DNA of 64,000 nucleotides, taken from NCBI GenBank assembly GCA_046484325.1, contig JAWOJB010000024.1:26008-90007 (forward strand), in the 5' to 3' direction. The number at the start of each line of letters is the position of its first letter. Positions within the stretch are counted from its first letter, which is position 1. This document shows, piece by piece, positions 3,937 through 48,400 of this stretch. Source of the DNA: Acidimicrobiia bacterium (lineage in GTDB: Bacteria; Actinomycetota; Acidimicrobiia; Spongiisociales; ZC4RG35). The translations under genes were made by a program, and so were the position numbers. Below the pieces are notes generated by a model. The model was not told the origin of the DNA. It was given only the letters and a program-made list of their open reading frames with translations, and did not search any database.

Positions 3937-5073
3937 ATGGGCCTGGCCAGGCCGAGCTTCACCATCGGGATCGAGGAGGAGTACCTTCTCGTCGATCGGT
4001 CCAACCGCAACCTGCTGGCCGACCCCGACCCCGAGATCTTCTCCACGTGCCGCAAGGAGCTGGGCGATCGGGTCGCCCCCGAGTTCCTGCGTGCCCAGAT
4101 CGAGGTGGGGACCCGACCCCACGCCTCCATCCAGGACCTGGCCGCCGACCTGGCGCATCTGCGCGGCACGGTGGGGAAGGCGGCGAGCGACCACGGGGCG
4201 GCGATCATCGCCGCCTCCACCCATCCGTTCGCTCTCTGGTGGGAGCAGCTCCCCACCGACCGCGATCGCTACCAGATGCTCGCAACCGACCTACAGATGG
4301 TGGCCCACCGTCTCGTGATCTGCGGGATGCACGTCCACGTCGAGATCGGCGACCCCGATCTCCGGATCGACCTCATGAACCAGATCCGGTACTTCCTCCC
4401 CCACCTGCTCGCCCTCTCGACGTCGTCGCCGTTCTGGGGAGGATGGAACACCGGGCTCAAGAGCTACCGGCTCAACGTGTTCCGGGCCCTCCCCCGCACC
4501 GGGCTCCCCGGCCACTTCGAGAGCTGGTCCGAGTACCGGCGCCATGTCGACGTGCTCGTCGGCGCCGGGATCATCGAGGACGCCACCAAGATCTGGTGGG
4601 ACGTCAGGCCGTCCGACCGGTACCCCACCCTCGAGATGCGCGTCTCCGACATCTGCACCCGGATGGAGGACGCCGTCACCATCGCCGCCGTCTACGCCTC
4701 CCTCCTGCACCTGCTGTACCGGCTCCGGACCCGGAACCAGCGCTGGCGCTCCTACGCCGACTTCCTCGTGGCCGAGAACATCTGGCGTGCGCAGCGGTAC
4801 GGGTCGCAGGGTTCGCTGATGGATTACGGGCAAGGCGAACTCGTCCCCTTCGTCGAGCTCGTAGACGAGCTCGTCGAGATGACCCTCCCGGACGCCGAGG
4901 AGCTCGGGTGTGTGGAGGAGGTGGCGAGAGTGCGCCGGATCGCCGCCGAGGGGACGAGCGCCGAGCGCCAGCTGGCCACCTACACCGCGGCGGTCGAGGG
5001 CGGCGCCGAGCGGGAGGTGGCCCTCGCCATGGTCGTGGACGAGCTCATCGCCGACACCTCCACCGGGGTGTGA
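3937..5073 (+). CDS. carboxylate-amine ligase (glutamate-cysteine ligase family 2, YbdK-like)
   Basis: ATG at 3937 preceded by GGAGG. N-terminus FTIGIEEEYLLVD and the HVHVEIGD motif are characteristic of GCS2/YbdK. Confidence 0.8.
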   Translation: MGLARPSFTIGIEEEYLLVDRSNRNLLADPDPEIFSTCRKELGDRVAPEFLRAQIEVGTRPHASIQDLAADLAHLRGTVGKAASDHGAAIIAASTHPFALWWEQLPTDRDRYQMLATDLQMVAHRLVICGMHVHVEIGDPDLRIDLMNQIRYFLPHLLALSTSSPFWGGWNTGLKSYRLNVFRALPRTGLPGHFESWSEYRRHVDVLVGAGIIEDATKIWWDVRPSDRYPTLEMRVSDICTRMEDAVTIAAVYASLLHLLYRLRTRNQRWRSYADFLVAENIWRAQRYGSQGSLMDYGQGELVPFVELVDELVEMTLPDAEELGCVEEVARVRRIAAEGTSAERQLATYTAAVEGGAEREVALAMVVDELIADTSTGV

Positions 5074-5083
5074 GCCGCACGCG

Positions 5084-5488
5084 TTACGCCTGCCAGCCCA
5101 CCAGGCGCTCGATCTCCACCAAGACCCAGGGCCCGGCCGGCGGGCGCTCACGGTACGGCGGGTAGCGCTCGGCCAGCGCGCGTGCTGGCTCGCTCCCGAT
5201 CGACTTCACGACGTTGCCGCGCCCTTCCGCCCGCACCCACCACAGCCGCTCCCAGTCCGAGTCCCAATGCTGTGCCAGCAGCGAAACCCGGGGGTCGGCG
5301 TCGATGTTGTCGAGCCGGTGGAGGCGGCGGGTGGTCTTGGGCTTCTGGTCGATCGGGGTGACGAGGGTCCGGGGACCGACCGGGGCGAACACGACCGGTA
5401 CCAGATCGGGGGCGCCGTCGGGGCCGATGGTGGCCAGAACCGCCACCTCGGAGGAACAGAACAGGTCCCAGGCACGGGCGGGTTCCAC
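5084..5488 (-). CDS. PPOX-class (pyridoxamine 5'-phosphate oxidase family) putative F420-dependent enzyme
   Basis: 134 aa. AVLATIGPDGAPDLVPVVF...TRRLHRLDNIDADPRVSLL pattern of the PPOX split-barrel family. Start uncertain (GTG). Confidence 0.65.
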   Translation of the reverse strand: MEPARAWDLFCSSEVAVLATIGPDGAPDLVPVVFAPVGPRTLVTPIDQKPKTTRRLHRLDNIDADPRVSLLAQHWDSDWERLWWVRAEGRGNVVKSIGSEPARALAERYPPYRERPPAGPWVLVEIERLVGWQA

Positions 5489-5517
5489 CGGTTCAGCCTA
5501 TGGCAGGATCCCGAATA

Positions 5518-5570
5518 CCATCGAGTGAACCTGAAGCGCCAATAGTTGGCGTCCCAGGTTCACTCGTTGC
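5518..5570. repeat. REP/MITE-like compound hairpin repeat, copy 1
   Basis: 12-bp arms cgagtgaacctg (5522-5533) and caggttcactcg (5555-5566) enclose an inner palindrome gccaatagttggc. Near-identical (~92%) to copy 2 at 6361-6413. Confidence 0.8.
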
Positions 5571-5584
5571 GACTTAGGCCTGAC

Positions 5585-6388
5585 ATGACCCGTTCCGTCC
5601 GCATCGCCGTCCAGCTCCATCCCCAGCACGCCGGATATCCCGACCTCCGGCGAGCGGTGCTCGGTGCCGAGGAGCTGGGTGTCGACATCGTCTACAACTG
5701 GGACCACTTCTTCCCGCTCTACGGGGACCCGGACGGCCGACACTTCGAGTGCTGGACGATGCTCGGCTCGTGGGCCGAGATCACCGAGCGGGTCGAGATC
5801 GGTGCCCTCGTCACCTGCAACTCGTACCGCAACCCCGAGCTGCTGGCCGACATGGCCCGGACCGTGGACCACATCTCGGACGGGCGGCTCATCCTCGGGG
5901 TCGGGTCTGGTTGGTTCGAGAAGGACTACGCGGAGTACGGCTACGAGTTCGGCACCGCCGGGGGGCGTCTCGATGCCCTGTCCGAGGCCCTGCCGCGGAT
6001 CGAGGCGAGGCTCGCCGCCCTCAACCCCGCCCCCACCCGCACGATCCCTATTCTCATCGGTGGTGGGGGCGAGAAGAAGACGCTCCGCCTCGTGGCCCGT
6101 CACGCCGACGCCTGGCACGGGTTCGGCAAGCCCGAGGTGATCCGGCACAAGCTGTCGGTGCTCGAGCGCCACTGTGCGGATCTCGGGCGGGACCCCGGCG
6201 AGATCGAGAAGTCGGTTGGGGTGGACGCGGCCCGGCTCGACCTCGGCGACGAGCTGCTCGCGCTCGGCATTACCCAGTTCACCATCGGCCGGAACGGTCC
6301 GGACTACGACCTCGGGCCGGTGGCCGACTGGGTGGCTTGGCGGGACGGGGTGAACAATGACCATCGAGTGAACCTGAAGGGCCAATAG
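5585..6388 (+). CDS. LLM-class F420-dependent oxidoreductase (luciferase-like monooxygenase family)
   Basis: Start MTRSVRIAVQL at 5585. WDHFFPLYGDPDG and ILGVGSGWFEKDYAEYGYEF are typical of the LLM family. The stop TAG lies in the loop of repeat copy 2. Confidence 0.85.
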   Translation: MTRSVRIAVQLHPQHAGYPDLRRAVLGAEELGVDIVYNWDHFFPLYGDPDGRHFECWTMLGSWAEITERVEIGALVTCNSYRNPELLADMARTVDHISDGRLILGVGSGWFEKDYAEYGYEFGTAGGRLDALSEALPRIEARLAALNPAPTRTIPILIGGGGEKKTLRLVARHADAWHGFGKPEVIRHKLSVLERHCADLGRDPGEIEKSVGVDAARLDLGDELLALGITQFTIGRNGPDYDLGPVADWVAWRDGVNNDHRVNLKGQ

Positions 6389-6413
6389 TTGGTGTTCCAG
6401 GTTCACTCGATGC
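6361..6413. repeat. REP/MITE-like compound hairpin repeat, copy 2
   Basis: Arms 6365-6376 and 6398-6409 with the same 21-nt loop spacing as copy 1. Contains the LLM stop codon. Confidence 0.8.
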
Positions 6414-6428
6414 GTCGTGGCGGCTGCT

Positions 6429-7478
6429 CTACTCCATCCCTCGCATGACCCGCTGGATTCGGCGCGACTCCTCGAGCACGAGCTCGAAGAGCCGGACCGC
6501 GTGGTCGGGGTTCACGCCCTGGGTCACCGCCTCCTGGCGGATCACGTCGAGCAGCTCGCGCTCCCTGGCCGGGATCTGGACGGGCATGTCCCGCTCCGCT
6601 TTGACCTCGCCGATCCGCACGGCCAGCTCCTGGCGCCGGGCCAGCATCCTTACGATCTCGCGGTCGATCAGGTCGATCCGGTTGCGAAGCCGGCTCACGC
6701 CGAGCGACACCATCAGCTCGTCGAACTGGGTCACGTCGAGCTGCCGTGGGCCCTCCGACCGGGCCGTATCGGGGTCGGGATGGACCTCGACGATGAGCCC
6801 GTCGGCCCCGACGCCCTGTGCGGCGAGGGCCAGCGGCGGCACTCGCGAGGCCCCGCCGGAGGCATGGCTGGGATCGACCACCACCGGGAGGTGGGAGCTC
6901 TCGCGGAGCATCGGCACCGACGAGATGTCGAGGGTGTCGGTGGACCCGTTGCCGAACGTGCGGATCCCCCGCTCGACCAGCACCACCTGGTCGTTTCCCT
7001 CCGCCAGCAGGTACTCGGCCGCCCACAGCCACTCGTCGATCGTCGCCGAGGGCCCCCGCCTCAGCAGGACCGGCTTCTCGGATCGGCCCGCCTCGCGTAG
7101 CAACTCGAAGTTCTGCATCGCGCCGGAGTGGATCTCGACCATGTCGATCGACTCGGTCACGACGGTGACATCCCGCGGCTCGAGCACCTGGGTCACGGTC
7201 GGCAGGCCGGCCCTGCGCCCGGCCTCGGCGAGCAGCCGGACCCCCTCGTCGCCCAGGCCGCGGAACGAGTAGGGGGAGCTCCCCGATTTGTAGGCGCCGC
7301 CACGGAGGACCGCGGCTCCCGCCTCGGCAACCGCCTCGGCGATCCGGTTGATCTGGCTCTCCGACTCGATCGCGCACGGGCCGGCAACGACCGGGAAAGG
7401 GTCGTGGCCGAAGCGGACGGTCCCCACGCCGACGACGGTCCGTCCGGCGGTCGATGATCGGGTGGCTTTTCTCTCCAT
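6429..7478 (-). CDS. 3-deoxy-7-phosphoheptulonate (DAHP) synthase, type I-beta, with C-terminal chorismate mutase (AroQ) domain
   Basis: VVAGPCAIES and VDPSH core of KDO8P-like DAHPS. C-terminal NRIDLIDREIVRMLARRQELAVRIGEVK is an AroQ chorismate mutase helix. Confidence 0.85.
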   Translation of the reverse strand: MERKATRSSTAGRTVVGVGTVRFGHDPFPVVAGPCAIESESQINRIAEAVAEAGAAVLRGGAYKSGSSPYSFRGLGDEGVRLLAEAGRRAGLPTVTQVLEPRDVTVVTESIDMVEIHSGAMQNFELLREAGRSEKPVLLRRGPSATIDEWLWAAEYLLAEGNDQVVLVERGIRTFGNGSTDTLDISSVPMLRESSHLPVVVDPSHASGGASRVPPLALAAQGVGADGLIVEVHPDPDTARSEGPRQLDVTQFDELMVSLGVSRLRNRIDLIDREIVRMLARRQELAVRIGEVKAERDMPVQIPARERELLDVIRQEAVTQGVNPDHAVRLFELVLEESRRIQRVMRGME

Positions 7479-28065: not shown

Positions 28066-29088
28066 TCAGATCGACCGGCCGACCGCCGCCGCCACCGCTC
28101 GCACCCGCTTCACCAGATCGGCGAACTCGGACGGCAACAGCGCCTGGGCGCCGTCGACCAGCGCCGTGTCGGGCGTGGGATGGACGTCGACCATGATGCC
28201 GTCGGCTCCGGCCGCCGCCGCTGCCAGGGCGAGCGGAGCGACCAGCTCACGCCGGCCCCCGGAGTGGGACGGGTCGACGAGCACCGGCAGGTGGGCGAGC
28301 TCCTTCAGGAGGGGGACCGCGGTGATGTCGAGGGTGTTGCGGGCCGCCGTCTCGAAGGTGCGGATGCCCCGCTCGACCAGGATCACGTGGTGGTTCCCCT
28401 CCTTGTACACGTACTCGGCGGCGTTGAGCCACTCCTCCAGCGTCGCCGTGAACCCGCGCTTGAGCTGGACGGGCTTGGGCTGGCGGCCGACCTCCTGGAG
28501 GAGGGTGAAGTTGGCCATGTTGCGGGTACCCACCCGGAGGATGTCGGCGTACGAGGCGACCAGCTCGACGTGGCGGGGGTCGAGCACCTCGGCCACGAAC
28601 GGGATGTCGAACGTCTCCCGGGCCTCGGCCAGCAGGCGGAGGCCCTCCTCGCCCAGACCCTGGAACGAGTAAGGGGAGGTGCGTGGCTTGAAGGCGTCGC
28701 CGCGCAGCACGGTGGCTCCCGCGGCCTTCACCGCCTCGGCGGTCCGGAAGAGCTGCTCGCGGCTCTCGACGGCACACGGCCCGGCGACGAAGGTGAATCC
28801 CCCGCCGCCGATGCGGGTGTTGCGCACGTCGATGACCGTGTCGACGGGTTGGAAATCGCGACTGACGAACTTGAAGGGCTTCAGCACCGGCACGGCCTTC
28901 TCGACGCCGGGCAACGCCTCCCACGGGATCTGCTGGATCCGCTCGCGGTCGCCTATGGCCCCGACGACCGTCTGGAACTGACCGGTCGACACGTGGGCTT
29001 CGCACCCGATGGAGCGCAGGCGCTCGACCACCGACTCGATGTCCTCGGCGGTGGCATCTGGACGCAGGACGATGATCATGGCGCTCAT
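28066..29088 (-). CDS. DAHP synthase type I-beta with N-terminal ferredoxin-like regulatory domain (Thermotoga AroG type)
   Basis: Start MSAMIIVLRPDATAEDIESVV at 29086-29088. The FL domain (KPFKFVSRDF) is followed by FVAGPCAVES and VDPSHSGG core. Confidence 0.85.
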   Translation of the reverse strand: MSAMIIVLRPDATAEDIESVVERLRSIGCEAHVSTGQFQTVVGAIGDRERIQQIPWEALPGVEKAVPVLKPFKFVSRDFQPVDTVIDVRNTRIGGGGFTFVAGPCAVESREQLFRTAEAVKAAGATVLRGDAFKPRTSPYSFQGLGEEGLRLLAEARETFDIPFVAEVLDPRHVELVASYADILRVGTRNMANFTLLQEVGRQPKPVQLKRGFTATLEEWLNAAEYVYKEGNHHVILVERGIRTFETAARNTLDITAVPLLKELAHLPVLVDPSHSGGRRELVAPLALAAAAAGADGIMVDVHPTPDTALVDGAQALLPSEFADLVKRVRAVAAAVGRSI

Positions 29089-29145
29089 CCTCGGGACCCC
29101 TGGAGCCGGCATGTTACGCCTGGTCCGGGGGCCGAATCTCCGCGC

Positions 29146-29174
29146 TTGCAATTGCTAGCGTTTTGCTGTAGCTT
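29146..29174 (+). promoter_or_regulatory. sigma70-like promoter with extended -10 driving a leaderless transcript
   Basis: TTGCAA (29146-29151), 17-nt spacer, TG-TAGCTT (29167-29174). Predicted TSS about 29181, the GTG start at 29182. Palindromes CAATTG and GCTAGC inside the promoter. Confidence 0.45.
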
Positions 29175-29181
29175 GTGGCTA

Positions 29182-29571
29182 GTGAGCGAAGGCAAGCACT
29201 CGGAGGTCGGCGAGTTCATCCGGCAGCAGCGGGAGCGAGCGGACCTCTCGTTGCGGAGGCTCGCCGAGCGGGCGGGGATCTCGAATCCCTACCTGAGCCA
29301 GATCGAGCGGGGAATCCGCAAGCCCTCGGCGGAGATCCTCATGCGGATCTCGCGGGCCCTCGAGATCTCCGCCGAGACGTTGTACAGCCGGGCGGGCCTC
29401 ATGGATGGTTCGCCGGTGTCGGTCTCGGTACTGGAGGCCGTCGAGGCCGACGAGCGCCTGACCTCACGACAGAAGACGGTCCTGCTGGAGCTCTATCGGA
29501 CGCTCGTCGAGGCGAGCGGACCGGTCGGGAGCCGGTCGACGGACGAAGCATCGACGAGAGACGAGGAGTGA
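29182..29571 (+). CDS. XRE-family helix-turn-helix transcriptional regulator
   Basis: LSLRRLAERAGISNPYLSQIERGIRKPSAEIL HTH_3 motif. GTG start, likely leaderless. Confidence 0.75.
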   Translation: MSEGKHSEVGEFIRQQRERADLSLRRLAERAGISNPYLSQIERGIRKPSAEILMRISRALEISAETLYSRAGLMDGSPVSVSVLEAVEADERLTSRQKTVLLELYRTLVEASGPVGSRSTDEASTRDEE

Positions 29572-29573
29572 TC

Positions 29574-30113
29574 ATGGAGGCGAAGACCTACCTCTATGCC
29601 GCCGTTGGGGCCCCGGTCGTGGCCGGCCGGGCCGTTCAGGGAACGTTCGAGTCCCTGCGCCAGAAGCTGACCGAGAACCGGGTGACCCTCACCAAGGAGA
29701 CGAAGGATCTCGTCGCCGAGTGGGCCGTCGAAGGCGAGAAGGCCCTCGACCGTCTCGGCGAGGGCAAGATGGTCGACGAGCTCACCGCCAAGGTGGACTT
29801 CGACCAGATGCAGGAGCAGGTGGGCAAGCTGCGCGACCAGCTCGAGGACATGCTCGAGACCTGGCGCACCAACTTCCGCCCTGCAGAGCGCGCCGAGGGC
29901 ATGATGCGCAAGGCCGCCGGAAAGATGGAGGAGGCCGCCGAGAAGGTGGAGGAGGCCGCTGAGAAGGTGGCCAAGCCGGCCGCCGCTGCCGCCAAGAAGC
30001 CGGCTGCCAAGAAGCCGGCTGCCAAGAAGCCGGCTGCCAAGAAGCCGGCGGCGACCACGGCGAAGAAGCCCGCCGCTCCGAAGCCCGCGCCGGAGGCCAC
30101 CAAGGCGTCCTGA
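29574..30113 (+). CDS. HbhA-like (heparin-binding hemagglutinin family) coiled-coil protein with C-terminal Lys/Ala/Pro repeats
   Basis: ATG overlaps the regulator stop. N-terminal amphipathic helices, C-terminal AKKPAAKKPAAKKPAAKKPAA. Confidence 0.65.
   Translation: MEAKTYLYAAVGAPVVAGRAVQGTFESLRQKLTENRVTLTKETKDLVAEWAVEGEKALDRLGEGKMVDELTAKVDFDQMQEQVGKLRDQLEDMLETWRTNFRPAERAEGMMRKAAGKMEEAAEKVEEAAEKVAKPAAAAAKKPAAKKPAAKKPAAKKPAATTAKKPAAPKPAPEATKAS
29991..30050 (+). repeat. 4 x 15-bp perfect tandem repeat (gccaagaagccggct) encoding AKKPA units
   Basis: Direct tandem copies inside the HbhA-like CDS. Confidence 0.85.
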
Positions 30114-30116
30114 CCC

Positions 30117-30155
30117 CCCCTCGACACGCGAAATGGGGACCCCGACCCGGGGTCC
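30117..30155. terminator. bidirectional hairpin terminator (18-bp perfect stem, 3-nt loop)
   Basis: cgcgaaatggggaccccg-acc-cggggtccccatttcgcg lies between convergent genes ending at 30113 (+) and 30172 (-). Confidence 0.6.
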
Positions 30156-30171
30156 CCATTTCGCGTTCGGC

Positions 30172-37182: not shown

Positions 37183-37183
<1 letters not shown>
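36335..37183 (-). CDS. coxM: Mo-hydroxylase FAD-binding medium subunit (CoxM/XdhB-like)
   Basis: Start MYPRPFDYVAPATLDEAV with GGGAGG-type RBS. FAD-binding domain and CO-dehydrogenase flavoprotein C-terminal domain. Confidence 0.85.
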
Positions 37184-39563
<2,380 letters not shown>

Positions 39564-39567
<4 letters not shown>

Positions 39568-40061
39568 GCCCGCACCCCCTCGGTCTCCCACTCCGCCGGC
39601 GGGGGCGTCTCACCCCGCATCCTGGCGGCCGCGTACTCGATGGCCTTCACGATGTTGTGGTAGCCGGTGCACCGGCAGAGGTTGCCTTCGATGCCGTGGC
39701 GGATCTCGGCCTCGGTCGGGCTCGGGTTCTCCTGGAGAAGGCCGACCGCCTGGATGATCATGCCCGGGGTGCAGAACCCACACTGGAGACCGTGCCGCTC
39801 CCAGAAGCCCTCCTGCACCGGGTGCAACTCGCCGTCGGCGGTGAGTCCCTCGATCGTGGTCACGTCTGAGCCCTCGGCCTGACCGACGAGCACCATGCAC
39901 GACTTGACGGTGGCCCCGTCGATCAGAACGGTGCACGCGCCGCAGTACCCGCTCTCGCAGCCGACGTGGGTCCCGGTGAGGCCGAGCTCGTCCCGCAGGA
40001 GGTGGACGAGGAGCGTCCGCGGTTCCACGGCGACCGCCACCTGCCTGCCGTTGACGGTCAT
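39564..40061 (-). CDS. coxS: Mo-hydroxylase [2Fe-2S] small subunit (CoxS)
   Basis: [11 protein letters not shown] and [14 protein letters not shown] cluster motifs. Start MTVNGRQV. Confidence 0.9.
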
Positions 40062-44457: not shown

Positions 44458-45495
44458 GTGGAGACGAGTCGGGTGGCGGTCCTGCTCGGAGGCTACGGCG
44501 AGGCCGAGCACGAGCACGAGCACGAGGAGTACAACGAGCGGGCGCTGCGCCTGCTGGTGTCGAAGTCGATTCGGTTCCCCGAGCCCATGATCCCGTGGAT
44601 GGCCCGGTTGCTGGGCCGTCGGGTACGGCGGGAGTGGGAGCGTGAGGACCACTTCCACTCCCCCCACAACGAGATCTTCGAGCAGCAGCGGGCGGGCATC
44701 GAGCAAGCCCTCACCCGGCGCTTCGGTCCGGACGCCGTGTCGGTGTTCACGGCCCTGAACTTCACCGACGGCCTGCTCCCGGCCCAGGCGCTCGGGCGCA
44801 TCCGCGAGGCCGGGTTCGACCGGCTGGCGATCTACCCGCTGGAGGTGCTCGACTCGGTGTTCACCTCGGGCCTCGTCCTGCAGCAGGTGAACGAGGCGCT
44901 CGGGGACGACGGGGGCTGGGTTGCCGAGGTCCGCTACCTCCCGGGCTTCGCCGACAGGCCCGAGTTTCACCGGCGGCTGGCCGAGCACATCCGGGACGGG
45001 GCGGCGGTCCTCCGGGACCGGTACGCCCCCACCCAGATCGCGGTGATGCTGCTGCTACATGGTTGCCCGCTCGAGTCGAAGGGTCACGAAGTCGGCATCC
45101 GGGAGTCCGAGGCCCTCTACCGGGCGGTCCGGGCCCTGCTCGTCGACCGGTACCCGCTGATCCACATCGGCTGGATGAACCATCCCACCCCCGCCAGGTG
45201 GACGAGCCCGGACATGGAGACGTCGGCGGAGAACCTGATCGAGCTGGGTGCGCGGGCCATCGTGTTCGCCCCCATCGGGTTCGTGACCGAGAACCACGAG
45301 ACCGTCCTCGACGTGTCGTACGTGGAGCGGAGCCTGGCGGGTCGGGTCGAGACGGTCCGGCTGCCGAGCCTGAACGCCGACCCGGCGTTCCTCGAGATGG
45401 CCGCGGGCTGGATCGCGCCGTACGTGTCGGAGCTCCGCCACGGCCACGACTGCTGTGTGAGCGACCACGGGCGCGAGATCTGCTGCACGACGTGA
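44458..45495 (+). CDS. hemH: ferrochelatase family protein with C-terminal Cys-rich tail
   Basis: RVAVLLGG, LLHGCPLES (LLxSxHGxP-like) and PIGFVTENHET (PIAFVSDHIET-like). C-terminal HGHDCCVSDHGREICC. Confidence 0.65.
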   Translation: METSRVAVLLGGYGEAEHEHEHEEYNERALRLLVSKSIRFPEPMIPWMARLLGRRVRREWEREDHFHSPHNEIFEQQRAGIEQALTRRFGPDAVSVFTALNFTDGLLPAQALGRIREAGFDRLAIYPLEVLDSVFTSGLVLQQVNEALGDDGGWVAEVRYLPGFADRPEFHRRLAEHIRDGAAVLRDRYAPTQIAVMLLLHGCPLESKGHEVGIRESEALYRAVRALLVDRYPLIHIGWMNHPTPARWTSPDMETSAENLIELGARAIVFAPIGFVTENHETVLDVSYVERSLAGRVETVRLPSLNADPAFLEMAAGWIAPYVSELRHGHDCCVSDHGREICCTT

Positions 45496-47735
45496 AGGTC
45501 GTCACCCTGGAGGGGGCGGGCCCCGGCGCCGGGGGGAAGGCCCGCAACCTCAGGTGGCTGATCGAGCACCGCTATCGGGTACCCCCGGGAGTGGTGGTGA
45601 CCGGGGCCGACCCCGGCGGTGCGGAATCTCTCGGCCGGGAGCTCTCCGGTCACCTCCGCCCCGGCGTCGAGTATGCGGTGCGCTCCTCGGCCGAGGTCGA
45701 GGACTCGGCTTCGTGGTCGTTCGCAGGTCAGTTCGACACACGGCTCGGCGTTGCCGGCCTCGACGAGGTGGTGCGGGCGGTCGGGGAGGTGGCCGCCTCC
45801 GCCCACGAACCCCGGCTCCGCCCGTACCTCGAACGAGCCGGCGTCTCCCCTGGCTCCGTGGAGATGGCCGTCATCGTCCAGGAGATGGTCGCCGCCGTGG
45901 CGGCGGGCGTGGCCTTCAGCCGGAACCCCCTCACCGGGCTGGGGGAGATCGTGATCGAGTCGGTGCCGGGCACGGGGGCGGCACTCGTCTCGGGCGAGGC
46001 CAGCCCGGAGCGGTGGGTGCGCCGGTGGGGGGACTGGATCGAGCGGCCGGAGGCACCGGCCGCGCCGGAGGGCACGATGGAGGAGCTGGCCGAGGTGGTC
46101 GACCGGATCGGCCGCCAGCGGAGGGAACCGGTCGATGTCGAATGGGCGTGGGACGGCCGCGAGCTTCACCTGCTCCAGGTGCGACCGTTGACGACCCGCA
46201 ACCTGGCCGTGTACTCGAACCGGATCTCGAGGGAGTTTCTCCCGGGGATGATCAAGCCGCTCGTGTGGTCGATCAACGTGCCGGTGGTCAACGGCGCCTG
46301 GCTCGAGCTGTTCGAGTCGCTCGTTGGACCCCTCGAACTCCGGCCGGATGACCTCGCCCGCCAGTTCGCCTATCGCGCCTACTTCAACATGCAGGCGGTG
46401 GGCGACGTGTTCGAGGCCCTCGGCATGCCTCGTGACCTGCTCGAGGTGCTGATGGGGCTGCCCGGTGGGAGCGATCGGCCCGGCTTTCGTCCGGGTCCGC
46501 GTGTGGTGCGTCACCTCCCGCGGATGGCACGGACCGGATGGCGACTGCTCCGCTACGACCGGGAGCTCGACCGGGCCCTCCCCGAGCTCGAGCAGCGCTT
46601 CGCGGCCATCGAGGAGCGCGACCTCTCCGCTCTCTCCAACCGGGAGCTCGTCGGATGCATCCACGAGCTCGAGGACCTGACCCGCCAGGGCGCCTTCGCC
46701 AACATCGTCGCCCCGCTCCTCATGAACGCCTATGGCTCGCGCCTGCGGAGACGGCTCGAGAAGGACGGCATCGATGCCCATGGCGTGGATCCGGCTGCCG
46801 CCGACCCGGCCCTGGAACGGTACGACCCCAACCGGCACCTCGACCGGCTCGCCGCGGCGGTGCCGACGCTCGCCCAGCCGGACCGGGACCGGGTGGCGGC
46901 AGGCGACCTGTCGGTGCTCCCGGGCGGGGAGGAGTTCCTGGACCGCTTCGGTCACCTGTCCGACTCGGGCAACGACTTCTCGTCGGTCCCCTGGCGGGAG
47001 GAACCGGCCCGCCTCGGACCGGTGGTTCTCGGGCATCGCCCCGCCGCCGGACCGGGTGGGGGGGAGGCGGACGTGCCGAGGTCGCGCCGGCGGTTGGCCC
47101 GGCGCGCCGGGCGGTTTCGGGTCGAGCGAGAGCGGGTGTCGTACCTGTACACACGGGGATACGGGTCCTTCCGGCCGCTCGCTCTCGAGGCCGGCCGCCG
47201 TCTGGTTGGGATGGACCTGCTCGAGTCGGCCGAGGACGTGTTCCATCTGACCCGTTCCGAGCTCGAGGGCCTTCTCTCCGGCGACCCCATCGACGATCCC
47301 GGCGGCGTGGCCCGGGCCCGGCGGGAGGAGATGGCGGCGCTGGCCGCGGTCTCGATGCCCGAGGTGATCTACGGCGAAGATTTCGAGCCTGCGCCGCCGG
47401 CGGATCCCGACCACCGGCTGCGAGGGGTTCCCACGTCCCGGGGGATCCATCGGGCCGTCGCCCGGGTGGTCTCGGGTATCGGCGAGGTCGCCCGGCTCGC
47501 GCCGGGCGACGTGGTGGTCATCCCGTACTCCGACGTCGGATGGACGCCCATCCTGGCGAGGTCGGGTGCCATCGTGGCCGAGTCGGGGGGGATGCTGTCG
47601 CACTCGTCGATCGTGGCGCGGGAGCTCGGCATCCCCTGCGTTGTCTCGGTCGATGGGGCGATGAGGATCCCGGACGGGGCGGTGGTGAGGGTGGACGGGT
47701 ACACCGGGGAGGTGCAGTGGGAGAACCCGGTCTGA
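45492..47735 (+). CDS. PEP-utilising enzyme family protein (pyruvate, water dikinase / rifampin-phosphotransferase-like)
   Basis: GTG at 45492 (GTGA overlap with hemH stop). N-terminal PPDK-type ATP-grasp (KARNLRWL, AVRSSAE.ED) and C-terminal mobile His domain (GGMLSHSSIVARELGIPCVV). Upstream part of ORF 45063..47735 overlaps hemH in another frame. Confidence 0.75.
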   Translation: MKVVTLEGAGPGAGGKARNLRWLIEHRYRVPPGVVVTGADPGGAESLGRELSGHLRPGVEYAVRSSAEVEDSASWSFAGQFDTRLGVAGLDEVVRAVGEVAASAHEPRLRPYLERAGVSPGSVEMAVIVQEMVAAVAAGVAFSRNPLTGLGEIVIESVPGTGAALVSGEASPERWVRRWGDWIERPEAPAAPEGTMEELAEVVDRIGRQRREPVDVEWAWDGRELHLLQVRPLTTRNLAVYSNRISREFLPGMIKPLVWSINVPVVNGAWLELFESLVGPLELRPDDLARQFAYRAYFNMQAVGDVFEALGMPRDLLEVLMGLPGGSDRPGFRPGPRVVRHLPRMARTGWRLLRYDRELDRALPELEQRFAAIEERDLSALSNRELVGCIHELEDLTRQGAFANIVAPLLMNAYGSRLRRRLEKDGIDAHGVDPAAADPALERYDPNRHLDRLAAAVPTLAQPDRDRVAAGDLSVLPGGEEFLDRFGHLSDSGNDFSSVPWREEPARLGPVVLGHRPAAGPGGGEADVPRSRRRLARRAGRFRVERERVSYLYTRGYGSFRPLALEAGRRLVGMDLLESAEDVFHLTRSELEGLLSGDPIDDPGGVARARREEMAALAAVSMPEVIYGEDFEPAPPADPDHRLRGVPTSRGIHRAVARVVSGIGEVARLAPGDVVVIPYSDVGWTPILARSGAIVAESGGMLSHSSIVARELGIPCVVSVDGAMRIPDGAVVRVDGYTGEVQWENPV

Positions 47736-48400
47736 GCCTCTTCCTGGCCGCCGCCACCGGCTATCTGATCGGGTCGATCTCCTTCGCCCATCTGGTCGGT
47801 CGCCGAATCGCACCCGGTGCCGACCTCGGCCGGTCGGCCGTCGTCCTGGACGACGGCTTCGTGATGGAGTACCGGGGCACGAGCGCGACGTCGGTCCGCC
47901 TCGGCGGGCACCGCCGCGCCGGGGCGGCCGTCGGGCTGCTCGACATCGCCAAGGGCGCGATCGCCGCGCTCCTCGCCGCCGGGTGGTGGCCCGACGTGCA
48001 CGCGGCCGAGGTGGCCGGGGTGGCGGCGGTGGTGGGCCACGTCTACCCGATCTGGCATCGCTTCCGCGGCGGCCGGGGCGTGTCGCCCTTCCTGGGTGCC
48101 ATGGCGGTCGTGGACTGGACGGCCCTGCCCGTCGTCTTCGGCGGCGGCTATGCCCTGGGTCTCGCCCTCGGTGACCTGTTCATGGCCTACGGGGGAGGCA
48201 CCCTGCTGGCGATCCCCTGGTACCTGTGGCGCCACGGCTGGGGACCGGAGACGTGGTTCGCGCTCGCCGGGAACGCGGTGTTCGTCCTCTCGGCCCTCCC
48301 CGAGGCGCGAGCCTGGATCCGCTATCGGAGGAGCCATCCGCGACCCTGGCGGGACCGGGCCCGCCAGATCCTGCGGGGGTTCCCGGGCCCGGAGCGCTAG
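47717..48400 (+). CDS. plsY: glycerol-3-phosphate acyltransferase PlsY
   Basis: LFLAAATGYLIGSISFAHLV and HVYPIWHRFRGGRGV motifs. GTG start at 47717 inferred. Confidence 0.7.
   Translation: MGEPGLSLFLAAATGYLIGSISFAHLVGRRIAPGADLGRSAVVLDDGFVMEYRGTSATSVRLGGHRRAGAAVGLLDIAKGAIAALLAAGWWPDVHAAEVAGVAAVVGHVYPIWHRFRGGRGVSPFLGAMAVVDWTALPVVFGGGYALGLALGDLFMAYGGGTLLAIPWYLWRHGWGPETWFALAGNAVFVLSALPEARAWIRYRRSHPRPWRDRARQILRGFPGPER

Follow-up and report, generated by a model that had tools for sequence, protein, structure and literature searches.

Paired compound palindromes at both ends of an F420-dependent LLM-class oxidoreductase gene in uncultured Acidimicrobiia: possible hairpin markers of its transcript boundaries

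The window, that is the whole 64-kb stretch of Acidimicrobiia DNA analysed here, carries two copies of a short hairpin-forming repeat which bracket a single gene, that of an LLM-class F420-dependent oxidoreductase. The question raised by this locus is what such a pair represents. The initial annotation, made from the letters of the sequence, offered small mobile elements of the REP or MITE type, RNA-structure elements or a cassette boundary. The presence of the hairpin pair bracketing the LLM gene is confirmed, and the interpretation put on it is, as a whole, partly supported.

A direct-repeat search returned a 55-nt repeat with 93% identity between its copies (Table 1), in agreement with the two ~92%-identical copies and 12-bp perfect inverted arms first described; the copies start 843 nt apart (start-to-start), corresponding to 281 codons. 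Each is a near-perfect 45-nt compound palindrome with perfect outer arms of 12 nt, CGAGTGAACCTG and CAGGTTCACTCG, enclosing an inner stem, GCCAA-TAG-TTGG(C/T). The inner palindrome reported initially is indeed present in both copies, but copy 2 reads gccaatagttggt and does not end in ggc. Terminal inverted repeats, by which MITEs are recognized, are thus present as the 12-nt perfect arms, with 15 nt possible in the downstream copy. With up to three mismatches allowed, the full pattern occurs at just these two sites in 64 kb, against 0 expected from shuffles, and the arm 12-mer with at most one mismatch is found only as these four arms (0.41 expected). When the copies are folded as RNA, both strands give predicted energies of -34 to -40 kcal/mol (z = -6.6 to -7.5); none of the shuffles is as stable, and neither strand is consistently preferred. 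The suggestion of RNA-structure-type elements stands up in that homologous structured palindromes, whose folds beat all shuffles, are found at both ends of the LLM gene. No Rfam family was matched at gathering score in the window, and a permissive search of positions 5400-6500 returned noise (E ~4-9). The palindromes have a G+C content of 53-54%, compared with 70% for the genome. Of long perfect hairpins the window has just one more, at 30126-30166, which lies 12 nt past a stop codon and has no U-tract.

Table 1. Features of the LLM locus, with positions as numbered in the window.
Feature	Position	Strand	Details
Upstream repeat copy	5517..5571		palindrome 5522-5566; arms 5522-5533 and 5555-5566; inner stem-loop 5534-5554; covariance model R1 score 78.9 bits
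Downstream repeat copy	6360..6414		palindrome 6365-6409; arms 6365-6376 and 6398-6409; R1 score 79.9 bits
LLM-class F420-dependent oxidoreductase, MSMEG_2906 family, 267 aa	5585..6388	+	PF00296; TIGR03856, 402 bits
PPOX-class F420-dependent oxidoreductase, Rv0121 family	5084..5488	-	PF01243; TIGR03668, 136 bits; divergent from LLM
Bifunctional DAHP synthase / chorismate mutase (DAHPS-CM)	6429..7478	-	PF00793 and PF01817; NF009239; convergent with LLM
Antisense ORF, 302 aa	5498..6406	-	no Pfam family; opposite frame is the strongly conserved LLM
TACCAT, putative TANNNT (-10-like) hexamer	5516..5521	+	only one at most 100 nt upstream of LLM start; abuts 5' arm
CAGGTT inside 3' arm	5555..5560	+	-30 from ATG; aligns with conserved TAGGTT/TACGTT (-32 to -35) of hairpin-less relatives
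TAGGCT, candidate -10 for a leaderless PPOX transcript	5497..5502	-	6 nt before GTG

The LLM protein has homologs of 259-263 aa, covering 96% of the query. As was noted initially, a PPOX-class F420 gene, recognized by its TIGR03668 match, lies directly upstream of it, divergent and on the minus strand, and the upstream copy sits within the 96-nt intergenic region between the two, ending 14 nt ahead of the LLM ATG. The downstream copy covers the final 8 codons of LLM together with its stop, the TAG (6386-6388) forming the loop of the copy, and ends 19 nt short of the DAHPS-CM stop codon. The ORF coordinates agree in this with the placement first described, 14 bp before the LLM start and across its stop with TAG in the loop. 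The TAG in the loop was considered as a design feature and rejected, as the three other hairpin-bearing lineages stop at TGA inside the 5' arm and the lineage of the window was shifted by a 1-nt indel, following which the final ~6 aa of its LLM protein are read from the hairpin. The antisense ORF across the gene had been described as generated by the repeats; both of its ends are closed by the AT-richer palindromes, but its body is the usual shadow ORF of a gene of 70% G+C, and it is not a gene.

Both copies are kept at matching positions in four related lineages (that of the window, L009, L022 and L023; 14 contigs), and the spacer between the arms is 21 nt in all 8 distinct copies. The relatives L018, L015-17 and L019 lack both hairpins and have the LLM gene in the equivalent syntenic slot (GCS2 / [PPOX] / LLM / DAHPS-CM). 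In L018, L015 and L019 nothing occupies the downstream site, the LLM and DAHPS-CM stops being 3-4 nt apart. Outgroup L025 was uninformative because its contig ends 31 nt past the stop. Comparison of orthologous loci, as had been proposed, therefore finds the LLM gene present with or without hairpins and no variation in the presence of an LLM cassette, and the single arrangement is found throughout, with no absence or inversion of the gene in any of the 14 contigs (at least 7 samples). The cassette boundary suggested at first does not survive this comparison. There is good support for the hairpin pair being specific to this locus and having arisen, with the LLM gene already in place, in the ancestor shared by a small group of uncultured Acidimicrobiia. 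Similarly well supported by the aligned loci, the downstream copy appears to be a whole-unit insertion of ~53 nt between the abutting LLM and DAHPS-CM stops.

The upstream copy lies among promoter-like motifs, for which published rules for -10 hexamers were used (PMC6448022). A sigma-70 consensus scan gave no match, this consensus being poorly suited to Actinomycetota. One TANNNT hexamer was found per lineage, at -32 to -35 where hairpins are lacking; in all four hairpin-bearing lineages it lies at -69/-70 and abuts the palindrome, ATACCAT being invariant there and the preceding ~12 nt variable. Since TACCAT abuts the 5' arm, a start site ~7 nt downstream would fall within the arm. The CAGGTT site inside the 3' arm shares the 9-mer AGGTTCACT with L021 (shuffle p = 0.0026), while ~33 nt of the upstream copy (5' arm and spacer) are new relative to the outgroups. 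It thus appears, with good support, that the upstream copy was built on promoter sequence of the gene itself, with the 3' arm occupying the ancestral TAGGTT -10-like position. On the other strand the transcript of the PPOX gene is probably leaderless; TAGGCT is conserved in four lineages, and AGCCTATGG in the window, L009, L022, L023 and L021.

Between the window and L009, 45 of the 48 positions in the 12-nt arms are identical (94%), compared with 0.60-0.63 at fourfold-degenerate sites (arms higher, P = 9e-7) and 0.766 in other intergenic DNA (arms higher, P = 0.002). Gap columns make up ~11% of the other intergenic DNA, with none in the palindromes, and the arms are at least 21/24 identical in all pairs of copies. 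The inner 21 nt are identical at 9-12 of 21 positions between the window and the other lineages, a drift close to the neutral rate. With the arms far above fourfold and intergenic identity and the inner part drifting in this way, selection must hold the arm sequence. The inner part is nevertheless more stable than its own shuffles in 16/16 copy-by-strand folds (z = -0.7 to -3.6). It is well supported that both the sequence of the 12-nt arms and their 21-nt spacing are maintained by selection, and that the apical 21 nt retain some pairing. The possibility that the repeats are no more than freely drifting intergenic DNA fails, as arm conservation in the four lineages is far over both the neutral and the intergenic baselines.

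Whether pairing itself is conserved is less clear. Covariation analysis found 0/14 outer pairs doubly changed and 9/14 that never vary, a lack of signal due to the arms hardly varying, and the inner stems shift register and so are not countable column-wise. With covariation absent, structure is not demonstrated by evolution, and the conservation of arm sequence fits protein recognition at least equally. Four substitutions in the upstream copies disrupt pairing, either on the two strands alike or on the LLM-sense strand, from which it follows that the upstream stem is not strictly maintained. Both arm substitutions in downstream copies (C9T in L009 and C10T in L022) result in G.U on the LLM-sense strand, which favours an RNA 3' hairpin.

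The two copies have also influenced each other. In L009, L022 and L023 the copies cluster by position, with an inner identity between upstream and downstream copy of 11-13/21, whereas the two copies of the window cluster together (inner part 18/21). Among strains of the window's species the inner part of the downstream copy is polymorphic, switching between a derived state and that of the upstream copy; it has 1, 2 or 3 inner differences from the upstream copy, this being the sole variation. The ACCAT ahead of the downstream copy is found in the window's species only. These patterns point, with good support, to an ongoing gene conversion that homogenizes both copies in the window's species. 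A conversion tract has likewise altered the last LLM codons, moving the stop into the hairpin loop, which is also a well-supported reading of the aligned copies.

The reading favoured here, which is quite possible but is put forward tentatively, is that a locally born and duplicated stem-loop pair marks the boundaries of the LLM transcript, the upstream copy as a leader or promoter hairpin and the downstream copy as a U-less bidirectional 3' hairpin. The two stem-loops would together delimit this transcript, all RNA-level steps being predictions from sequence. With the upstream copy between TACCAT and the start codon, LLM mRNA would begin in the 5' arm and carry a 5'-terminal stem-loop, which may act as a stabilizer or leader attenuator. 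Alternatively, the weakened CAGGTT may still be the -10, in which case the upstream palindrome would overlie the promoter. Stem-loops at the 5' terminus, of the type in the ompA leader, stabilize mRNA. If TACCAT is the -10, the LLM hairpin would similarly lie at the extreme 5' end of its mRNA; it differs in that in three lineages mismatches in the upstream stem are tolerated without compensation, and here the start site is a prediction from the motif. A long-range pairing within one mRNA, between its 5' and 3' copies, was also considered and rejected, as the copies have diverged in three of the four lineages without co-variation.

As RNA, the downstream copy would form a U-less bidirectional 3' hairpin, a terminator and/or a block to 3' exonucleases, serving both LLM and DAHPS-CM. 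Its position just past a stop is in keeping with this, as it overlaps the stop of LLM, with that of DAHPS-CM 9-19 nt away, a placement not shared by the upstream copy. A terminator scan of positions 5000-7000 found none and there is no T-run flanking either side of the palindromes, so that neither copy has the U-tract that follows the G+C-rich hairpin of a canonical intrinsic terminator. In Streptomyces, U-poor 3' ends are the majority, only ~25% of mapped 3' ends having a U-rich motif (PMC8780764). The downstream copy resembles the U-less ('I-shaped') 3' hairpins or bidirectional terminators of high-G+C Actinomycetota, being stable, a few nt past a stop, free of a U-tract and between convergent genes. 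The hairpin at 30126-30166 is another U-less example in the window. However, the stems of terminators tend to be rich in G+C and to change in a compensatory way, while this element is AT-richer, conserved in sequence and has a twin in the 5' region of the gene. REP/BIME elements such as E. coli REP325 are also short imperfect palindromes at gene ends or between convergent genes; REP325 is a partial terminator and 3' mRNA stabilizer, as is suggested here of the downstream copy, and REPs that separate convergent genes are associated with raised expression of the two (bioRxiv 10.64898/2026.03.23.713779). REPs differ in occurring as hundreds of dispersed copies tied to RAYT, whereas here two copies are visible at one gene with no RAYT seen, one of them in a promoter/leader region, and orthologous copies are sequence-conserved across species. 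Counting against the transcript reading are the absence of covariation, the upstream mismatches, the missing U-tract and the lack of a strand preference, as well as an AT-richer element (53-54% against 70% G+C), unusual for a stem selected for stability, and strict 21-nt spacing with free sequence, as a DNA-binding protein with two half-sites would predict.

Such a protein is the basis of a rather unlikely alternative, in which the arms are half-sites and the sites, one at the PPOX/LLM promoters and one 843 bp away, control or insulate LLM (and PPOX) by looping or roadblock. The conserved arms without compensatory change, the spacer of exactly 21 nt in 8/8 distinct copies despite its neutrally drifting sequence, and the AT-richer composition all favour it. 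The upstream copy lies over the position of the ancestral -10, with a -10-like hexamer on either side in divergent orientation, and has what is expected of an operator, conserved inverted-repeat half-sites at a fixed spacing in a divergent promoter region; their centres are 33 bp apart, or about three helical turns. LacI, DeoR and GalR use auxiliary operators hundreds of bp away. In the looping systems lac O1/O2, deo and gal there are also two copies of an inverted-repeat site, of which the first is at the promoter and the second lies at or within the gene at a distance of hundreds of bp, with sequence and spacing conserved. Here, however, a regulator gene is adjacent in no lineage, the 33-bp centre-to-centre spacing is unusual and, with asymmetric half-sites, atypical of HTH dimers, the distal site is flanked by two convergent stop codons and has no promoter near it, the half-site is found nowhere else in 64 kb, and the retained inner pairing is not predicted. 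The boxes of Rex, CRP, LexA, CIRCE, HAIR and parS were rejected, their GTGAA/TTCAC-like half-sites being only loosely similar with spacing or orientation wrong, and a literature search for a described operator matching the arms found none matching. An improbable variant would have a sequence-specific factor, binding DNA or reading the hairpin form, engage both ends of LLM and loop or insulate the gene, the sites forming a conversion-matched two-site 'bracket' born from its own promoter. The pair could also be without function, a quasipalindrome that arose and was perfected through template switching, was duplicated once in ectopic repair and persists for lack of time. Template-switch mutagenesis is known to create and perfect inverted repeats (PMC7202029), the upstream copy resembles an inverted duplication of native sequence, and uncompensated mismatches accumulate in its arms. 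This is nonetheless very unlikely, as the arms evolve several-fold slower than fourfold sites and other intergenic DNA around a spacer that is about neutral, with zero arm changes on the long branch to the window's species and 0 indels in 8 copies against many in neighbouring intergenic DNA.

The remaining explanations are those that look beyond the locus. A dispersed REP-, MITE- or PATE-like family with other copies outside the window, inserted at both gene ends and later co-opted, is in keeping with the compound palindrome, the TIR-like arms of 12-15 nt, the G+C below that of the genome, the location at gene ends and a downstream copy that resembles a clean ~53-nt insertion when set against outgroups with stops 3-4 nt apart. 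Unrelated bacteria have hairpin families with an identical 11-12-nt arm, so such arms do recur. Among MITEs, Correia elements of Neisseria insert near gene ends and can supply promoters, terminators and RNase III sites, and they likewise have terminal inverted repeats around a short core. Such elements are, however, typically 100-150 nt, whereas these are 45-55 nt, with no target-site duplication, multi-copy family or cognate transposase. Searches with covariance model R1 (filters off) turned up only the two known copies in the 64-kb window and no extra copy in 20.8 kb of L009 or at the loci of relatives, and no exact-arm copy from a related organism was found in 185,579 species-representative genomes, a metagenome collection and viral contigs. 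Exact-arm matches in Propionibacterium, two Rhodospirillum, Frigoriglobus and an AT-rich, ORF-poor contig were judged to be coincidental sharing of an 11-nt arm among very many natural hairpins. An additional CGCCAATA is shared with L006-8. No direct repeat is common to the flanks of the 8 distinct copies, giving no consistent target-site duplication, and no transposase, RAYT (IS200/IS605-like TnpA) or recombinase was seen among the scanned part of the window ORFs and in the gene table of L009, nor any RAYT in that of L015. With the 3' arm of the upstream copy aligning with native promoter sequence of outgroups, and with orthologous copies held by selection rather than decaying, the mobile element proposed initially finds no backing and a wider family is unlikely. 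Recombination sites, with LLM excised, inverted or integrated between direct repeats (attC-like, att-like or IS200/IS605-end-like), are extremely unlikely and this cassette reading is largely refuted. It is true that direct repeats in hairpin form exactly bracket one gene, that 55-nt repeats could in principle loop it out, and that integron cassettes with attC also set a single promoter-proximal gene between imperfect palindromes in direct orientation. Against this, the LLM gene is ancestral, being at the locus in palindrome-less relatives, 14/14 contigs have it in one orientation, there is neither integrase nor transposase nearby, the R''/R' core sites of attC (RYYYAAC/GTTRRRY) are missing at the arm ends, and in three of the four lineages the two copies have grown apart in sequence. 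Integron attC, IS200/IS605 ends, DGR TR/VR, invertons and serine-integrase att sites were each rejected on missing cores or enzymes, synteny and the lack of arrangement polymorphism.

The hairpin pair is a modest local curiosity and reveals neither a new mobile-element class nor a gene cassette system. It does hold a lesson for annotation, in that in the window's species the element sets the LLM stop codon and the last residues of the protein. If the transcript-boundary reading is true, the pair would be a compact natural example of the birth of a cis-element, with a palindrome grown from a promoter, copied to the other end of the gene, selected and matched by conversion. It would also give a 5'/3' hairpin pair with which expression could be controlled in high-G+C Actinomycetota.

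A repeat search of the window returned one outstanding direct repeat, 55 nt long, with two 93% identical copies 843 nt apart at the ends of an F420-dependent oxidoreductase gene (LLM). Each copy is a near-perfect palindrome with perfect 12-nt arms, CGAGTGAACCTG and CAGGTTCACTCG, around a 21-nt core which forms a second small stem, reading GCGCCAA-TAG-TTGGCGT in copy 1 (upstream). The full palindrome pattern (up to 3 mismatches) occurs twice in the 64 kb, with 0 expected, and the arm 12-mer (up to 1 mismatch) is present only as the four arms. Both copies fold stably as RNA on either strand (-34 to -40 kcal/mol, z = -6.6 to -7.5), and a covariance model built from them, run with filters off, scored them at 79-80 bits, the next best window match being an unrelated hairpin (13 bits). 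The compound palindromes proposed for the gene ends by the initial annotation are therefore borne out by repeat, pattern, folding and covariance-model searches.

Coordinates of features of the hairpin locus and of related or neighbouring elements
Feature	Position	Strand	Evidence or description
Carboxylate-amine ligase	3937-5073	+	Profile searches
PPOX-class F420 enzyme (PPOX)	5084-5488	-	TIGR03668
Copy 1 (upstream)	5517-5571		Direct repeat
LLM-class F420-dependent oxidoreductase, MSMEG_2906 family (LLM)	5585-6388	+	PF00296; TIGR03856, 402 bits
Copy 2 (downstream)	6360-6414		Direct repeat
Bifunctional DAHP synthase/chorismate mutase (DAHPS-CM)	6429-7478	-	Profile searches
Second DAHP synthase paralog	28066-29151	-	N-terminal ferredoxin-like (FXD) domain
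Tandem repeats in ORF 29175-30113	29985-30050		About four 15-nt units
Perfect hairpin	30126-30166		19-bp stem, 3-nt loop
Arm-sharing hairpins in unrelated bacteria	L001 7456-7570; L002 4686-4732; L004 6420-6466; L003 6013-6061
Hairpin of a metagenome contig	L006 3036-3076 (= L007, L008)

From the coordinates and strands of the genes, copy 1 lies in the 96-nt divergent region between PPOX and LLM, and copy 2 between the convergent stops of LLM and DAHPS-CM, overlapping the LLM stop. An antisense ORF (5498-6406), without a match in a family search, is a shadow ORF. Very long ORFs at 45117-47813 (-), 37183-39591 (-) and elsewhere in the window also run antisense to real genes, one of them a PPDK-like gene (45063-47735); these are typical shadow ORFs at the G+C content of the window (about 70%) and represent the same phenomenon. 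The named protein relatives of DAHPS-CM are from Acidimicrobiia MAGs (65-73% identity). The second DAHP synthase paralog, not a chorismate mutase fusion, shares about 68% DNA identity with the DAHPS-CM gene.

The hairpin pair was identified in four lineages, namely the window's species (window and contigs L005, L031, L032), L009 (with L010-14 and L029), L022 and L023/24, each with both copies in the same positions and a core of exactly 21 nt. No further copies were found elsewhere in these loci or in those of hairpin-less relatives (outgroups); the scans of sequence collections used exact arms, which copies with arm mismatches would escape. Outside the hairpin-bearing clade DAHPS-CM identity falls from 94% to 78%, and the database is therefore without another close lineage. 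The window's species and that of L009 co-occur in single metagenome samples (L031/L009 in JGI 3300076001; L005/L013 in 3300075934), and a 63.8-kb contig, Ga0645781_04065, extends past the left edge of the window by about 26.6 kb.

Loci of relatives, located by exact-protein look-ups and homolog searches, have their genes in a conserved order, namely molybdopterin oxidoreductase, adenine glycosylase, GCS2, [PPOX], LLM, DAHPS-CM, MBL-rhodanese, UbiA and COX, with LLM identities to the window of 88% (L009), 82% (L018), 79% (L019 and L021) and 77% (L015-17). In L018, L019 and L015-17 both hairpins are absent though LLM is syntenic, the LLM and DAHPS-CM stops being 3-4 nt apart and the upstream intergenic regions about 60 nt. 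L021 has no upstream hairpin and a different downstream neighbourhood, with tandem CCGTGATCCGTCAC copies (1110-1150) where DAHPS-CM would be. Since the gene is syntenic in relatives without hairpins, LLM was there before them; it is neither missing nor inverted in any of 14 contigs (at least 7 samples). The suggestion of a cassette boundary fails on this comparison of orthologous loci, as the gene is found with and without hairpins.

Each lineage has exactly one TANNNT hexamer in the 100 nt before the LLM start: TAGGTT or TACGTT at -32 to -35 in four hairpin-less relatives, and TACCAT, directly next to the 5' arm at -69/-70, in the four hairpin-bearing lineages. CAGGTT of the 3' arm (-30) aligns onto the outgroups' TAGGTT, and L021 and the arm have AGGTTCACT in common (shuffle p = 0.0026, or about 0.01 once five outgroups are allowed for). 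We infer that the upstream copy took its 3' arm from native promoter sequence, onto which about 33 nt (5' arm and core) would have been gained by inverted duplication, the whole unit of about 53 nt being copied afterwards to the 3' end of LLM. Template switching at quasipalindromes is a known source of such inverted duplications (PMC7202029). A Shine-Dalgarno sequence (GGAGG/AGGAG) lies 8-13 nt before LLM in outgroups L018, L019, L021 and L015; it is reduced to a weak AGG in the window and lost in the other hairpin-bearing lineages (L009 9982-10000, L022 1400-1417, L023 976-994). Of mycobacterial promoters, 79% carry ANNNT between -6 and -13, TANNNT being the stronger form compared with VANNNT; leaderless transcripts make up 24% of the total, and a Shine-Dalgarno sequence is missing from 53% of the genes that do have a leader (PMC6448022). 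By the mycobacterial hexamer rules the PPOX transcript looks leaderless, with a conserved TAGGCT 6-7 nt before its GTG, while LLM has two candidate -10 elements, TACCAT and the weakened CAGGTT, under rules taken from other Actinomycetota.

The cores of L009, L022 and L023 group by position (up-up 14-20/21, down-down 18-20/21, up-down 11-13/21). The two copies of the window's species match each other at 18/21, and either matches anything else at 12/21 or fewer. Among strains of this species, otherwise 99.8% identical, the downstream core varies at exactly the positions that distinguish it from the upstream copy; these number 1 in L031, 2 in L032 and 3 in the window. ACCAT precedes every upstream copy, and the downstream copy in this species only. 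The core match, the strain differences and the shared ACCAT show that copy 1 overwrote copy 2 by gene conversion, repeatedly or patchwise. In alignment the conversion tract carries one extra base relative to other lineages, in which LLM has 261 aa and stops at a TGA within the 5' arm. In the window this 1-nt indel near the 3' end (6355-6388) shifts the frame, adds six residues and moves the stop to the TAG of the loop; the hairpin encodes the last six or so residues (an HRVNLKGQ-type tail), and orthologs end 5-8 residues sooner. The initially noted TAG stop in the loop is thus true of the window but is an accident, not a design feature.

Window and L009 are 85.5% identical across 15.5 kb, with fourfold-degenerate sites identical at 0.60-0.67 and other intergenic DNA at 0.766 (about 11% gap columns). 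The arms of orthologous copies are identical at 45/48 positions (P = 9e-7 relative to fourfold sites, P = 0.002 relative to other intergenic DNA) and at 21/24 or more in every pairwise comparison; the eight distinct copies show six arm substitutions, none of them along the long branch that leads to the window's species. The core, at 9-12/21 between the window and other lineages, changes at about the neutral rate, has no indels in any copy and is more stable than its own shuffles in 16/16 copy-by-strand folds (z = -0.7 to -3.6). Pairing in the outer stem is 96%, and covariation analysis of its 14 pairs gave 9 invariant and no compensatory (double) changes, which argues that arm sequence and spacing are what selection visibly keeps; the hairpin structure is compatible with the data, covariation giving no proof. 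Both downstream-copy arm substitutions give G.U on the LLM-sense strand, and the four upstream ones break pairs.

Our first choice, held tentatively and at a little under an even chance, is that the copies are transcript-boundary stem-loops. With TACCAT as the -10, LLM mRNA would start in the 5' arm (about 5528) with a 5'-terminal stem-loop; were CAGGTT the -10, the LLM promoter would be spanned by the palindrome. The downstream copy would be a 3' hairpin for both LLM and DAHPS-CM, and sits exactly where one shared by two convergent genes would. The only other window hairpin with at least 12 perfect pairs, ACGCGAAATGGGGACCCCG acc CGGGGTCCCCATTTCGCGT (30126-30166), lies 12 nt past the stop of ORF 29175-30113, has no U-tract, and is probably its 3' hairpin or terminator. 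This U-less hairpin, the promoter placement and the position of copy 2 give the reading its rank, together with the mostly U-poor 3' ends of Streptomyces (PMC8780764) and E. coli REP325, where such palindromes are able to terminate and stabilise (bioRxiv 10.64898/2026.03.23.713779). ORF 29175-30113 has no Pfam match; its C-terminus carries AKKPA repeats encoded by GCCAAGAAGCCGGCT, and the tail is lysine/alanine-rich and histone-like.

Conservation of the arm sequence rather than of pairing, and the fixed spacing, also suit a two-site protein operator well; this reading is unlikely yet ranks next. Somewhat less probable is a dispersed REP/MITE family with its remaining copies outside the window. 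No multi-copy family is visible in the sequence covered, target-site duplications are absent and no transposase or RAYT is nearby among the ORFs scanned. We consider a functionless by-product improbable, and recombination sites very improbable, there being no attC cores and no neighbouring integrase. The element likewise has no U-tract and no match in Rfam.

Long compound hairpins with arms (A/G)GAGTGAACCTG ... CAGGTTCACTC(T/C) occur in unrelated bacteria, namely a Propionibacterium MAG (two tandem copies), two Rhodospirillum species and a Frigoriglobus MAG; with so many hairpins in nature, recurrence of the exact 11-mer arm is probably a coincidence. A metagenome contig that is AT-rich and poor in ORFs (L006) carries CGAGTGAACCTGAACGCCAATAC...CAGGTTCACTC and shares CGCCAATA with the window core, more than the search pattern demanded.

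Within the broad class of intergenic palindromic stem-loops, the element fits best as a new, lineage-restricted member, unusual on three counts: it is a locus-specific pair, partly born, it appears, from native promoter sequence, and evolving in concert.
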